12,488 nucleotides of DNA from Candidatus Micrarchaeota archaeon (GCA_043810635.1 JBDRNY010000026.1:1-12488), one strand, 5' to 3'; counted from the first letter of the stretch, positions 4,794-12,488 are shown. Notes: generated by a model from the sequence alone, not told the origin. Numbers and translations: made by a program.

Positions 4794-4865
4794 GGGCACA
4801 TAGTCGAACGGTAAGACGCTGCCTTCGCAAGGCAGAGACTGGGGGTTCGATTCCCCCTGTGTCCA
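4794..4865 (+). tRNA. tRNA-Ala (anticodon CGC), 72 nt, no encoded CCA
   Basis: Cloverleaf folded by hand. Acceptor GGGCACA/TGTGTCC includes the G3:U70 alanine identity pair. D-stem is GTC/GAC. Anticodon stem is CTGCC/GGCAG with loop TTCGCAA (anticodon CGC). T-arm is GGGGG-TTCGATT-CCCCC. Discriminator is A. Confidence 0.9.
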
Positions 4866-7085: not shown

Positions 7086-7218
7086 GCCGGTGTCGCATAA
7101 CCTGGTAGTGCGCTGGTCTTGAAGAGCCCTTTTCCACCTTTGGTGCAAAAGCCCTCGGGGAAAAGCTCTGGAAAACCAGTTCCTTACGGAATTGTAGGTT
7201 CAAATCCTGCCGCCGGCG
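7086..7218 (+). tRNA. tRNA-Ser (anticodon UGA), class II with long variable arm, interrupted by a ~50-nt intron (about 7124..7173) at the canonical 37/38 position; no encoded CCA
   Basis: Hand fold. Acceptor GCCGGTG/CGCCGGC has one G:U. D-stem is GCAT/GTGC with a 9-nt GG-containing loop. Anticodon stem 5' CTGGT (7113-7117) pairs with ACCAG (7175-7179) only if 7124-7173 is removed, leaving loop CTTGAAA (anticodon TGA). Variable arm is TTCC-TTAC-GGAA (14 nt). T-arm is GTAGG-TTCAAAT-CCTGC. Discriminator G73 fits Ser identity. The intron termini form a helix AGAGC/GCTCT compatible with a BHB-like splice motif. Confidence 0.8.
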
Positions 7219-7412: not shown

Positions 7413-8429
7413 ATGGGCAGTAAAGCAATTCTTGGTTTGATATTTCTGTCTTTGATGCTTTTTATTTTTGTTTCAGGCTGTACCCAGGAGGCATTTGCAT
7501 GCAACAAACCATATATCCAAGTAGGCTCGGAATGCTGCCTGGACCAGGATAGCAACGAAATATGCGACAAAGATGAACAGGGGCAGCAGCCTGCCGCACA
7601 AGGTGCAAATGCAGATGAAAATGCAATGGGTGCGACTGGAGATGAGGCAGGCTCTGCAAATGCCACTGCAGATGAGAATGCAATTGGCGCGGGCGAGGCA
7701 GGCGCTAAAGATGCCGGCGTAGGCGGGGGAGGGGCATTTGAGGAATGGAAAGCTCCTGACGGCTCAATCACGCTGCAGGTGCCTGCGGGCTGGAAACCAA
7801 GTGAGAAGCAGGTGGACACGTGCACTGTAAGCTGGGCTGTGCTAGACCCTGCAGGCACGAGCTCTGCCTACATGGACAACGAGATAATGGTTCTGAAGTC
7901 TGAGGATGCGCGGCAGATGTACAAAACATATGGCATGAGCGGGATTGACAATGCTCCTGTGAGCAGCTATCTTGGGGCAGAGCAGGCAGTGCAGCAAATT
8001 ATTGCGCCGCTCACCGGCGCAAGCAATGTGCGGATAATTTATACTGATGATGCGATGAGCCAGCAATTCTCGCAGGCTGTGTGCATTGCAGGCTTTGCAG
8101 CGTGCGATGCGCGGGTTTTCGAGGCTGCCTACCAGAGGAACGGAATCCTGATGAGGGGCAAATACTTTGTGCAGACTTATGATTTCGGCGAGGGCACCAC
8201 GTGGTGGATAAATATCTGGGGCTATACTTCGCCTGCTGAAGGCTGGGACAATTCCATTCCTGTGCTGGAAAGAACATTCACCTCGGTAAAATATACTGAT
8301 GAGTGGGCTGCCAAGTGCCAGAAGAACTCTGATGAAGCAAGCGCTGTGATTGGCGAAGTGGTTAAGAGCAGGCAGGCATCGTCAGAAAAGTCAGCAGAGG
8401 AGTGGGACAAGTATATTAGGGGCGGATAA
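7413..8429 (+). CDS. Secreted lipoprotein candidate of unknown function, GC-rich relative to its surroundings, with a Gly/Ala/Asp/Glu-rich repeat linker
   Basis: AGGTGGT SD lies 5 nt upstream of the ATG. The signal peptide MGSKAILGLIFLSLMLFIFVSGC has a lipobox-like VSGC. The linker has near-tandem repeats ADENAMGATGDEAGSANAT / ADENAIGAGEAGAKDAG, followed by a Cys-containing globular domain. Composition is visibly GC-richer (roughly 55-60% by eye) than flanking genes. Confidence 0.75.
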   Translation: MGSKAILGLIFLSLMLFIFVSGCTQEAFACNKPYIQVGSECCLDQDSNEICDKDEQGQQPAAQGANADENAMGATGDEAGSANATADENAIGAGEAGAKDAGVGGGGAFEEWKAPDGSITLQVPAGWKPSEKQVDTCTVSWAVLDPAGTSSAYMDNEIMVLKSEDARQMYKTYGMSGIDNAPVSSYLGAEQAVQQIIAPLTGASNVRIIYTDDAMSQQFSQAVCIAGFAACDARVFEAAYQRNGILMRGKYFVQTYDFGEGTTWWINIWGYTSPAEGWDNSIPVLERTFTSVKYTDEWAAKCQKNSDEASAVIGEVVKSRQASSEKSAEEWDKYIRGG

Positions 8430-10083: not shown

Positions 10084-10094
10084 AAAGTAAACTA

Positions 10095-10114
10095 TGTGTT
10101 AATTATACTTAACA
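10095..10114. promoter_or_regulatory. Palindrome GTGTTAA-ttatac-TTAACAC overlapping a TATA-like element 12-31 bp upstream of the ATPase start codon
   Basis: Perfect 7-bp inverted repeat read directly. On the minus strand it reads GTATAATTAAC, a plausible TATA box for a short-leader transcript of the ATPase gene. Confidence 0.35.
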
Positions 10115-10181
10115 CAAAGTTAAAAAGGCTTTCGGATGCTGGCTGAAGGGCCGATTATTGAGCCTCCTATTCCTGCCTAAC

Positions 10182-10239
10182 ATTTTGTAACTATTCTTTT
10201 ACAAAATACCTGCTTTTTGTAATATCAACTTTACAAAAT
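10182..10239. promoter_or_regulatory. Tandem pair of 9-N8-9 palindromes: ATTTTGTAA-N8-TTACAAAAT (10182-10207) and TTTTTGTAA-N8-TTACAAAAT (10214-10239), about 32 bp centre-to-centre. Candidate double operator.
   Basis: Half-sites are exact reverse complements (second site has one variant base in the left half). The spacing of about three helical turns is typical of cooperative dimeric transcription-factor sites. Located 100-155 bp upstream of the ATPase gene and just upstream of the structured region 10290-10445. Confidence 0.45.
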
Positions 10240-10289
10240 GCAAATATATGCCGCTTTATTTGTGCGGATTTTTGTACTGAGAATTTGCA

Positions 10290-10445
10290 GCATGTTATAG
10301 CAAACCACGAAAGTTTTACGAATTTCCTGCTTTGCTTCTGCCTCGTGGTTTGCTAGGTTGCAGGCCGCATTACGGCAAACCAGAAGAGGTTTGCCGGGCT
10401 GCAGGACGCTTAAGCGGACTGCAGGACTTTGGCGGACTGCAATAA
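10290..10445 (+). other. GC-rich, highly structured non-coding segment (candidate sRNA gene) with nested GCAAACC-based hairpins and tandem GCGGACTGCAGGAC-like repeats
   Basis: Hairpin A is GCAAACCACGA (10303-10313) / TCGTGGTTTGC (10343-10353). Hairpin B is GGCAAACC-agaaga-GGTTTGCC (10374-10395). Three degenerate tandem units contain CTGCAG (10396-10442). An AAATATAT TATA-like element precedes at about 10242-10249 and long oligo-T tracts follow (10455-10490). Only short, mutually overlapping ORFs cross it. Confidence 0.3.
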
Positions 10446-10478
10446 TTTGCATTTATTTTTTTCTAATTTTTTTATTTT

Positions 10479-10503
10479 TATTTTTCTTCAATAAAATCTT
10501 CAA
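10479..10503 (+). repeat. Direct repeat copy 2 (TATTTTTCTTCAATAAAATCTTCAA), partner of 8669-8693
   Basis: See copy 1. The two copies bracket about 1.8 kb containing the ATPase gene, its palindromic promoter region, the double operator and the structured non-coding region. Confidence 0.5.
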
Positions 10504-10715
10504 CCCGACATATGCAGAAGACAATGATTATAGTACATACGCATCTCGCCAGAGCGGATTGCCTTCGGTCTATTATAGTTATTCCACTTCAATACCTTCA
10601 GGCATGACTGCTGCAACATGGCATGTAAAACACGGAGATATTGCCGCATATGACATAACTCTGGTATCGTCCTGCAGAAATCAAAATCCAATACAACTTA
10701 GAATTAGGAAACTAT

Positions 10716-10949
10716 TTATTGCAGCTTTTTCAATATTGCACCTAAGAGGATAACAAGCCCAATTATTATCAGTATTGAAGGGCATATGGGAACATTAAAG
10801 CTCCACCATGCAAGCTCTTTTCCGAACCAATATAATCCAATAAGGGATATCGCAACTCCTACGAGAATGCTTCCCCAGCTTATACGAGTGCTATGATGCC
10901 ATTTCCATCCCCTTTCCCATTCTCTAAAATCCATCTGTTTTTTTACCAT
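10716..10949 (-). CDS. Small membrane protein (77 aa, two predicted TM helices), co-operonic with gvp genes
   Basis: ATG at 10949 is preceded on the minus strand by GTGGTGTT (GGTG SD) with correct spacing. It has two hydrophobic stretches and an 8-nt gap to the upstream gene. Confidence 0.5.
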   Translation of the reverse strand: MVKKQMDFREWERGWKWHHSTRISWGSILVGVAISLIGLYWFGKELAWWSFNVPICPSILIIIGLVILLGAILKKLQ

Positions 10950-10957
10950 AACACCAC

Positions 10958-11170
10958 CTACTGTTGCTGTCGCATTCTAAAATATTTATAACCAAACCAG
11001 AGGGCGATTATCCCCGTTACTGTCCAAAATATGCTAAAGATAAGAAGAACAACCTGCGGGATGCTGCTCCCGCCAGGAACCGCTAAAAGCAGCGCACCAG
11101 TTGCAATCGCTGCCAACCCAAAGAAAAGCGCAATCTCTGGAGATTGCTGTGTTATCGGCAAATTTTCCAT
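10958..11170 (-). CDS. Small membrane protein (70 aa, two predicted TM helices), co-operonic with gvp genes
   Basis: ATG at 11170 is 1 nt after the stop of the GvpA/J-family gene. Hydrophobic segments are ALFFGLAAIATGALLLAV and VVLLIFSIFWTVTGIIALWFGY. Confidence 0.55.
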   Translation of the reverse strand: MENLPITQQSPEIALFFGLAAIATGALLLAVPGGSSIPQVVLLIFSIFWTVTGIIALWFGYKYFRMRQQQ

Positions 11171-11171
11171 A

Positions 11172-11426
11172 CTACACCACCACCTCGACCTTTTTATCCT
11201 TTTTTACCTCTTCATCCGCCATCTCCATCCGTATTTTTTCATCCAAATCTTCCATCATGCCATAGCTTATCATAGTGTCCATATTGGCAAGAGCAGCCCT
11301 TAAATTGATTCCTAATAGTGGAACACCGGCAAGGGTTACAACAACATCTGCTTGAATGACAATCCCTTTGTCGAGGACCCTGCCCAGCAAGTCCACAAGC
11401 GCAGAATTTTCATCTTTCAATTCCAT
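11172..11426 (-). CDS. Gas vesicle structural protein of the GvpA/GvpJ/GvpM family (acidic C-terminal tail, more GvpJ-like)
   Basis: Core LVDLLGRVLDKGIVIQADVVVTLAGVPLLGINLRAALANMDTMISYG aligns with the GvpA consensus (LAEVLDRVLDKGVVVDxWxRxSLVGIEILTVEARVVxASVDTxLxYAE). The ATG at 11426 is preferred because the longer track start at 11477 is TTG. Confidence 0.8.
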   Translation of the reverse strand: MELKDENSALVDLLGRVLDKGIVIQADVVVTLAGVPLLGINLRAALANMDTMISYGMMEDLDEKIRMEMADEEVKKDKKVEVVV

Positions 11427-11748
11427 CCAGATCCAACTCGAAAAATGTTTGATAAATTTCACTAAGCCAATTGTCAACTTTTCTTATAGCAATATAATTA
11501 ACCCGCCCTCCCGAAACGATTTGGAGCTGCTTAACCATTTTTGAGAGTATGCATTTTCTTTTTACGATATCAACCTTTTCCAAGTCTTCCAAATATCTTT
11601 GAAAGGTAACTTTTTCACCTTGAGCAAAGATAAGCCTTCTGGTTGTCAAATGAAGGTAGCCTGGCTTCCAGGAAACCATCTGCTGAAATAACCCCTGGTC
11701 CCGGAGTACTAGCTCCTCGTTTTCTAAAGGCCTTAGTTTTTGAAACAT
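11410..11748 (-). CDS. Hypothetical protein (112 aa) with a bacterial-PH/GRAM-like signature (GYLHLTTRRLIF), embedded in the gvp operon
   Basis: ATG at 11748 is 9 nt after the GvpF/L stop, and the 3' end overlaps the GvpA/J-family start by 17 nt. The G-x-L-x-LT-x-R-x-IF pattern resembles bPH_2/DUF304-type PH domains. This assignment is tentative. Confidence 0.5.
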   Translation of the reverse strand: MFQKLRPLENEELVLRDQGLFQQMVSWKPGYLHLTTRRLIFAQGEKVTFQRYLEDLEKVDIVKRKCILSKMVKQLQIVSGGRVNYIAIRKVDNWLSEIYQTFFELDLDGIER

Positions 11749-11757
11749 GTTTATGCC

Positions 11758-12488
11758 TCATAAAAATGAATACGGAGCCCAAGGCCCGGTTATGCGGCCG
11801 GAAAGATTGTTAAAATCATCCATTTTTTCCAATTCTTCCTTAAATTGTGCGGCATTTTCTTTTTGTATAAGGCAAGAAACATTTAGCAGCATAGTTTTTC
11901 CATCTGCTTTCCTTGTTTTTCCGGAGCGCATATCACTGCAACAATTTTTTATTATGGATTGCACTTCTTTTGCGAGCTCGCTGGTTTTTTCCCCAAGTTC
12001 CTTTTTAACCACGCTTTCAAATGTCTGCTTGCACAGGTATGCATGGCCTGGCGAATCTGCTGCTTCCATTTTCTTTTTCAATTCGGCCACTCTCTCATTT
12101 TTATTAAGAATGTCCTGAAGAAGCCTTTCCCTGTCCATAAATACTTGAACACCATATTCCTGCTTGCCTCTAAGCTCGTTTAGTTTTCTTTCTAAATCAG
12201 GATGCTGCTCTTCAAGCCATTTTTGCACAGCCTCGTTTGACCCGCTATCTTTCTCTTTTATTATGGTGTCAAACCTCAAAGGAACAGCCGCGTTGAATTT
12301 ATTAAAGGCGAGATCAATGACGCTATTGTGGGCCTGTGCATAATTAATAATAACATTTTCATCCTTTGAATCATAGGCTTTAGGAAGGCAATTATGCACT
12401 ACTGCGCTTATGCCCAAATGTGGAATTGTATATACATTGTTTTCTTCTATGCCAATTTTGCCAAGGCTGATAAAATCGCCAGTATCAA
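11758..12488 (-). CDS. Gas vesicle protein GvpF/GvpL family (5' end beyond window)
   Basis: The C-terminus ...SGRITGPWAPYSFL matches the conserved GvpF/L terminal motif (GPWPPYSF). The coiled, charged central region is typical. The frame stays open past the TTG at 12417 to the window edge (upstream residues ...DFISLGKIGIEENNVYTIPHLG resemble the GvpF N-terminal beta-strand region). Confidence 0.85.
   Translation of the reverse strand, partial: DTGDFISLGKIGIEENNVYTIPHLGISAVVHNCLPKAYDSKDENVIINYAQAHNSVIDLAFNKFNAAVPLRFDTIIKEKDSGSNEAVQKWLEEQHPDLERKLNELRGKQEYGVQVFMDRERLLQDILNKNERVAELKKKMEAADSPGHAYLCKQTFESVVKKELGEKTSELAKEVQSIIKNCCSDMRSGKTRKADGKTMLLNVSCLIQKENAAQFKEELEKMDDFNNLSGRITGPWAPYSFL

Follow-up and report, generated by a model that had tools for sequence, protein, structure and literature searches.

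A predicted PH-fold accessory protein in archaeal and bacterial gas-vesicle gene clusters

One end of a 12,488-bp contig from an NCBI metagenome-assembled genome (MAG) labelled 'Candidatus Micrarchaeota archaeon' (JBDRNY010000026.1; this whole contig is referred to as the window) carries five consecutive minus-strand genes: gvpL and gvpM, which belong to gas-vesicle (Gvp) families, a gene for a 112-amino-acid (aa) protein between them, and genes for two membrane mini-proteins of 70 and 77 aa, here named TM1 and TM2, after gvpM. The locus raises the question of what three proteins unlike the standard Gvp accessory proteins are doing beside gas-vesicle components. An earlier reading made from the sequence alone (the sequence-only reading) had proposed that they are novel assembly or anchoring factors, or that the genes form a gvp-derived system with another function. 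We find that the 112-aa protein is, by its predicted structure, a pleckstrin homology (PH)-fold accessory gas-vesicle protein, and that the PH-like domain is a cryptic, recurrent domain of gvp clusters in archaea and bacteria that is not unique to the window locus. On balance we favor a role for it as an escort or adaptor for GvpM within the GvpL/GvpH nucleation module.

The minus strand of positions 10600-12488 was read for open reading frames (ORFs), and direct reading gives five, with spacings of 9, -17, 1 and 8 nucleotides (nt), in agreement with the sequence-only reading. NCBI gene calls on the contig are the same as ours and label the 84-aa product of gvpM 'gas vesicle protein' and the 112-, 70- and 77-aa proteins 'hypothetical'. 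All five are real genes under purifying selection and not chance ORFs, because the ratio of nonsynonymous to synonymous substitution (dN/dS) is 0.10-0.21 throughout (Nei-Gojobori, pairwise, window versus the related loci L001 and L005), with synonymous divergence (dS) of ~0.6-1.7. By gene, dN/dS is 0.10-0.16 for the PH gene, 0.16-0.21 for TM1, 0.10-0.19 for TM2, 0.12-0.21 for gvpL and 0.12-0.16 for gvpM. The small ORFs, whose conservation in homologous clusters had been proposed as a test, are thus present and constrained in both L001 and L005.

The 112-aa protein is small and basic (pI 9.1). Searched against the Gvp families in Pfam and NCBIfam, neither it nor the 70- and 77-aa proteins gave a match at E<=1, as anticipated from the sequence alone, and the 112-aa protein matched 0 Pfam families at E<=0.01. 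A HMMER search with the family profile against 1.84 billion cluster representatives recovered 60 relatives at E<1e-3. AlphaFold2 (AF2), run on a diverse 30-member alignment (A4), returned a model with a predicted local distance difference test score (pLDDT) of 89.9 and a predicted template modelling score (pTM) of 0.81, in which seven beta-strands are followed by a long C-terminal helix, the predicted arrangement of a PH-like fold. A conserved Trp in the C-terminal helix is a feature of classical PH domains, and in A4 residue W94, at least 90% conserved, sits in this helix (H91-111). The sub-threshold Pfam matches of A4 members are to PH-clan families alone: Vps36 (5/30), bPH_3 (4/30), GRAM (3/30) and CheF-arch (3/30). 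The PH/GRAM-like character noticed in the sequence-only reading is therefore upheld by the predicted fold, though the window protein differs from the known families of the superfamily (PH, GRAM, Vps36 GLUE, bacterial bPH, CheF) in falling under every family threshold. No solved structure for the family was detectable by a PDB sequence search with the family profile. To our knowledge, a dedicated gas-vesicle genomic context has not been described for any PH family. Identity with GvpI was considered and rejected, the hhalign probability being 0.06% and Halobacterium GvpI being a low-complexity basic protein.

Where, then, is this family found? Genomic contexts were sampled, and twelve independent ones were read, which makes this a sample and not an exhaustive survey. 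A profile search of a 5.8-billion-protein set returned 111 PH-family members, all annotated 'hypothetical' and none with a Pfam domain, from archaeal and bacterial MAGs (Ca. Euphemobacter frigidus, and others labelled Actinomycetota, Nitrospirota and Pseudomonadota), and a scan of genome contigs returned a single locus, L010. A contig look-up by exact sequence with the window PH protein gave no match. As far as sampled, the family is confined to gvp neighbourhoods. In the archaeal type the order is J-H-K-L-[PH]-M, seen in the window, L001, L005, L007, L010, L011 and L024, and in the window, L001, L005 and L010 the PH gene overlaps the start of gvpM by the same 17 nt.

In the bacterial type, which comprises large gvp clusters (L013/L014 and L019), the product of the gene directly 3′ of gvpL is a fusion of 349-369 aa in which a GvpM-type domain is combined with two PH-like domains and a zinc (Zn)-ribbon. 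The L019 fusion lies above the Pfam cut-offs for Gas_vesicle (62 bits), Vps36 GLUE (31.2 bits) and GRAM (25.3 bits), and it is only this fused bacterial homologue, and not the window protein, that passes the Vps36/GRAM gathering thresholds. L013/L014 carry a third PH copy fused to a winged helix-turn-helix (wHTH)-like region and an Hsp20 domain; this copy was not found within the stretch of L019 read. Among the 60 representatives, PH::Hsp20 fusions number 7 that are clear by Pfam, 2 under the Hsp20 cut-off and 3 judged from sequence alone. Simple read-through of the gene order in archaea would not give the bacterial fusion, because the GvpM domain of the latter is N-terminal. A programmed frameshift that fuses PH and GvpM is likewise unlikely, since the natural fusions have the opposite domain order (GvpM first).

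A cultured example is found on a plasmid of Streptomyces sp. SGAir0924 (NZ_CP027299.1; L026 8581-9492), where the PH hidden Markov model (HMM) matches at E 7e-12 inside a 303-aa protein annotated 'GvpJ'. The N-terminus of this protein is 48% identical to haloarchaeal (Halobacterium) GvpM versus 38% to GvpJ, and its C-terminal 200 residues contain one clear PH-like domain (domain E 5.7e-10) and a second repeat recognized by motif only (domain E 3.1). The repeats are of the WRxG..LT..RL type, and Pfam sees neither. Judged by these alignments, the current 'GvpJ' annotation appears to mislabel and under-describe the protein.

The bacterial loci also share a wider module: beside the PH-like gene it comprises a tandem-domain ArsA, a radical-SAM enzyme that binds B12, a tetratricopeptide repeat (TPR) protein and a PH::wHTH::Hsp20 gene, and Hsp70 and DnaJ-type zinc-finger proteins are frequently present too (L013/L014 8001-14085; L015 3907-9927; L019 10001-12693; L020 586-6911; L022 3777-6550). 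No locus has every part: in the stretches read, L019 is without the radical-SAM gene and L022 without ArsA. In L015 and L020 the PH-ArsA-radical-SAM-TPR module stands at a contig end, so that their gvp genes, if any, lie off the contig. ArsA and Hsp20 in bacterial gvp clusters have already been described (Castillo and Saier 2010, PMC2963123), and the bacterial PH-family relatives sit in clusters of this kind, with tandem-domain ArsA and Hsp20; the PH-like genes, the B12 radical-SAM gene and the GvpM::PH fusions are unmentioned there. The archaeal window clade differs in being without ArsA in the stretches seen. No description of a radical-SAM enzyme in gvp clusters was found, and its presence in the bacterial loci could indicate a post-translational modification step.

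The neighbors of the PH gene are readily identified, as the sequence-only reading had expected of a GvpF/L and a GvpA/J/M-family protein. The gvpL product matches Pfam GvpL_GvpF (PF06386) at 1.2e-54 (186 bits) and NCBIfam GvpL at 1.6e-44 versus 8.6e-13 for cyanobacterial GvpF, and its best tblastn matches in plasmids are haloarchaeal gvpL genes. The 84-aa protein (MFH1306418.1 in the NCBI annotation) matches Pfam Gas_vesicle (PF00741) at 6.6e-15 (55.4 bits versus a cut-off of 25) and NCBIfam haloarchaeal GvpM at 2.2e-23, ahead of GvpJ (1.6e-14) and GvpA. The NCBIfam GvpL and GvpM models rank best but both matches are under the strict equivalog cut-offs (for GvpM, 81.7 bits versus 109). We count the 84-aa protein as a GvpM orthologue on its best match to the GvpM model and its position downstream of gvpL in gvpL-[PH]-gvpM. 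It shares 46% identity with Halobacterium GvpM and 45-50% with the GvpM portion of the bacterial GvpM::PH fusions. GvpM, a minor protein of hydrophobic character, is needed at the initial stage, aggregates without GvpH and binds GvpL (PMC9501494).

TM1 and TM2 each contain two hydrophobic 19-residue stretches (Kyte-Doolittle at least 1.6), in keeping with the two double-transmembrane proteins of the sequence-only reading. They probably lie in the cytoplasmic membrane, and from their charge distribution both termini would face the cytoplasm. The TM1 start is preceded by a GAGGTG motif, and the Shine-Dalgarno sequence noted earlier for one of the two is the GGTGGTG before TM2. TM1 homologues 65-68% identical occupy the same position in L001 and L005, and TM2 homologues are 70-79% identical (alignment A3), with a conserved Trp-rich, basic N-terminal segment, WERGWxWHHSTRISWGS. 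Pfam similarities are sub-threshold only (TM2 to LiaF-TM, 18.6 bits versus 27; TM1 to DUF308, 16.8 bits versus 25). The two are not paralogues of each other, as no alignment between them was obtained. Every contig on which homologues were found also carries gvpL-PH-gvpM of the close clade (PH at least 75% identical); after gvpM they are absent in L010, L011 and L024 and from all bacterial loci, and none was found beyond the close clade by a metagenome scan, local HMMs or a concatenated word-indexed search, the last being insensitive for TM1, for which it missed known homologues. Downstream of TM2 the window has AAA/DUF4143, L001 a DEAD helicase and L005 a transposase, and because these neighbors differ in each lineage, the conserved block ends with TM2. 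TM1 and TM2 are thus a recent, lineage-specific addition at the operon end in one narrow archaeal sub-clade, and the PH gene and the mini-proteins have different histories. The earlier suggestion that all three proteins lie outside described gvp clusters therefore holds for TM1 and TM2, which were found in this lineage only, and, as far as the literature was searched, for the PH family, which was not found there; it does not hold for the PH-like domain as such, given its recurrence in archaeal and bacterial gvp clusters.

What might the PH protein do? It is probably coupled in function to GvpM and GvpH. In archaea it is co-produced with GvpM by translational coupling. In the mechanism that we envisage, it would most likely bind GvpM as a hydrophobic, aggregation-prone minor shell-family protein, and would keep it soluble and pass it to the GvpL/GvpH nucleation module, with the two hairpin mini-proteins as auxiliaries added recently at the operon end. 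The PH fold is used as an assembly chaperone in pICln and in histone-chaperone PH domains, and by analogy the PH protein may hold GvpM as pICln and similar proteins hold their clients; the likeness does not extend to any specific sequence or structural closeness past the shared fold. For this specific chaperone mechanism our confidence is tentative and falls short of even.

Several observations weigh against an escort role for GvpM. In the bacterial clusters the second, standalone PH gene precedes the tandem ArsA ATPase and does not adjoin gvpM, so the family may have more than one partner, and in L022 the order is K-L-M-Hsp70-[PH]-radical-SAM-TPR, with GvpM standalone and the PH gene after Hsp70, away from gvpM. 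The PH HMM found no match over the gvp regions of Halobacterium pNRC200 (L021) and Octadecabacter arcticus (L025), and because these clusters are without a PH-like ORF, the protein is not universally required. The fold call itself rests on the deeper alignment, as AF2 run on a shallow 13-sequence alignment gave a poor model (pLDDT 46), and the best Pfam PH-family match of the window protein, to Vps36, reaches 14.4 bits versus a cut-off of 24.1.

Other explanations were also weighed. The PH protein could be a membrane tether that attaches to membrane lipid or to the Trp-rich tail of TM2 on the cytoplasmic side and, with TM1 and TM2, anchors nascent or mature vesicles via GvpM. The presence of the PH gene without TM1 or TM2 in L010, L011, L024 and all bacterial clusters means that the mini-proteins are not an obligate partner, and joint anchoring is for the same reason not a core function of the PH protein; the fusions are to GvpM and Hsp20, with none to membrane segments, and a basic lipid-binding motif in the beta1-beta2 loop, as in phosphoinositide-binding PH domains, is hypothetical here. 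We therefore regard tethering as improbable. A narrower version, in which the PH protein and TM1/TM2 form a membrane-docking device in a small-genome archaeon and PH bridges GvpM at the vesicle tip to the TM2 cytoplasmic tail, seems very unlikely; if it were true, gas vesicles would for the first time be known to be anchored to a membrane, and no earlier gas-vesicle system would be known from a DPANN-type archaeon.

The PH protein might instead coat the outside of the vesicle and stabilise or cluster vesicles in the manner of GvpC or GvpU, with no part in nucleation. No Pfam-recognisable GvpC was seen in the clusters of the relatives, the PH protein is small and basic beside a GvpM with an acidic tail, and accessory proteins of the GvpU type bind the tails of shell proteins (bioRxiv 10.1101/2023.06.01.543273). 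The covalent fusions, however, join the PH domain to a minor protein, GvpM, and to chaperone domains of the Hsp20 type, which points to assembly and not to bulk coating, and the gene is part of the JHKLM 'assembly' operon and does not adjoin gvpA, so that we give a shell-surface role little weight. As for TM1 and TM2, and possibly PH, being passengers, that is, unrelated neighbors such as small LiaF/PspC-like envelope-stress membrane proteins that share the transcript, their similarities to known families are weak (LiaF-TM, DUF308 and PspM-like only), and TM1 and TM2 are very narrowly distributed, with sister clusters lacking them. Yet the coupling is tight (1 and 8 nt), the two genes hold the same position in three diverged lineages under the constraint described above while the flanking genes differ in each, and no copy was found outside a gvp context; for the PH gene the idea is contradicted by its gvp-restricted distribution and by the fusions. 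Taken as a whole, a passenger origin is quite unlikely.

We turn to the extent of the operon itself (Table 1), which the sequence-only reading had taken for a compact five-gene unit that starts with GvpF/L. Because the contig ends inside gvpL, and the relatives carry gvpJ, gvpH and gvpK upstream, the five genes are a truncated tail and not a compact operon: about 15 N-terminal residues of GvpL are missing relative to the 257-aa homologue in L001. Thirteen homologues of the 112-aa protein (75-100% identical) lie on longer contigs, including one of 1.37 Mb, and in the syntenic relatives the order is gvpA-x-gvpN-x-x-gvpF-gvpG-gvpO, an HTH regulator on the opposite strand, and gvpJ-Hsp20(gvpH)-gvpK-gvpL-[112 aa]-gvpM-[66-69 aa]-[94-109 aa]. 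The GvpA, GvpN, GvpK, GvpG and GvpO genes are all upstream in L001, L005, L007 and L011. The five genes are thus very probably the 3′ end of a cluster that is complete and canonical, of the Methanosarcina/haloarchaeal type, and with gvpA, N, F, G, O, J, H, K, L and M all present in the relatives, a gvp-derived system with another function finds no support.

Table 1. Genes and sequence features at the gas-vesicle end of the window (positions counted from the first letter of the contig).
Feature	Coordinates	Strand	Remarks
gvpL (GvpL/GvpF family)	11758..12488, open to contig end	-	242 codons visible; C-terminus ...GPWAPYSFL
Gene for 112-aa protein, predicted PH fold	11410..11748	-	begins 9 nt after gvpL stop; 17-nt overlap with gvpM start
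gvpM (GvpA/J/M family, GvpM-type)	11172..11426	-	ATG at 11426; 84 aa; acidic C-terminal tail
TM1, 70-aa predicted two-span hairpin mini-protein	10958..11170	-	begins 1 nt after gvpM stop
TM2, 77-aa predicted two-span hairpin mini-protein	10716..10949	-	final gene of conserved block
GGTGGTG Shine-Dalgarno-like motif ahead of TM2	10952..10958	-	overlaps last base of TM1 stop codon; read from sequence

Haloarchaeal gas-vesicle clusters are organized as gvpACNO and gvpDEFGHIJKLM, and the arrangement in Methanosarcina barkeri is gvpAAA-NOFG-JHKLM (PMC9501494). The gene-order comparison that had been called for shows that J-H-K-L-M of the relatives matches M. barkeri, that the core of A, N, O, F, G, J, H, K, L and M is shared with both kinds of cluster, and that the window GvpL and GvpM are recognisably orthologous to the haloarchaeal proteins. 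The differences are the PH gene between gvpL and gvpM, the two mini-protein genes after gvpM, and the absence of gvpD, gvpE and gvpI. The cluster thus belongs to the known gas-vesicle kind and is closest in order to the Methanosarcina/haloarchaeal JHKLM operon. Halobacterium GvpH, which is Hsp20-like, and GvpI are non-essential accessory proteins that form an H-I heterodimer. The PH protein would resemble them in its proposed job, the handling of hydrophobic GvpM during nucleation; its domain is frequently part of a covalent fusion with a GvpH-like Hsp20 domain, and like GvpI it is small and basic. It is homologous to neither, however, and has no Hsp20 domain of its own.

Further unannotated ORFs lie between gvpA, gvpN and gvpF in L001 (2627-2965, 3979-4711) and L005 (1329-1811, 2804-3639); they include a DnaJ-type CXXCXGXG zinc-finger protein after gvpN, and none matches the PH HMM. 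In the window, the ~630 nt downstream of the last operon gene (10084-10715) contain only short overlapping ORFs on both strands, none of them convincing, and an Rfam scan at the gathering threshold found no RNA genes there. The rest of the contig is archaeal housekeeping (FtsZ, a diphthamide-synthase-like protein, tRNAs, Fic, a CAP-domain protein and an AAA/DUF4143 ATPase). It includes a normal tRNA-Ala(CGC) at 4794-4865 and, at 7086-7218 (+), an Rfam tRNA (41 bits, 133 nt span) that is absent from the ARAGORN output and is probably an intron-containing archaeal tRNA. A 338-aa ORF without a Pfam match at 7413-8429 (+), with a hydrophobic N-terminus and an Ala/Gly-rich low-complexity stretch, lies within a GC-rich island (51-55% GC versus ~40% elsewhere on the contig).

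As to the host, NCBI labels of close relatives conflict, being Ca. Micrarchaeota for the window and Methanobacteriota for L010 (JAKFXM010000051.1). The complete cluster is carried on the single 1.37-Mb contig (L001, JGI 3300027819 Ga0209514_10000001), which suggests a small host genome. Ca. Micrarchaeota is a DPANN phylum, and should the DPANN label prove correct, the presence of gas vesicles there would be noteworthy.

From these analyses, we conclude that what is new here is a PH-fold accessory family, predicted from its structural model, that is modelled by neither Pfam nor NCBIfam and was not found in the literature, together with two lineage-specific membrane mini-proteins. Literature searches for gas vesicles with pleckstrin homology, PH domain, GRAM domain, DPANN or Micrarchaeota, in which coverage was partial, returned nothing relevant. 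Gas-vesicle nucleation, and the solubility and delivery of the hydrophobic minor proteins GvpM and GvpJ, are unsettled, and gas vesicles are engineered as acoustic reporters, where assembly stress limits expression. A PH-fold domain that has been linked repeatedly in evolution to GvpM and to the GvpH-type chaperone domain, as a coupled adjacent gene or by covalent fusion, offers a concrete candidate for the handling of GvpM. Proteins labelled 'GvpJ' or 'hypothetical' are thereby seen to contain a domain that their annotation lacks, and the family would add a prokaryotic, organelle-specific use of the PH fold. The mini-proteins, for their part, raise the possibility of contact between the vesicle and the cell membrane.

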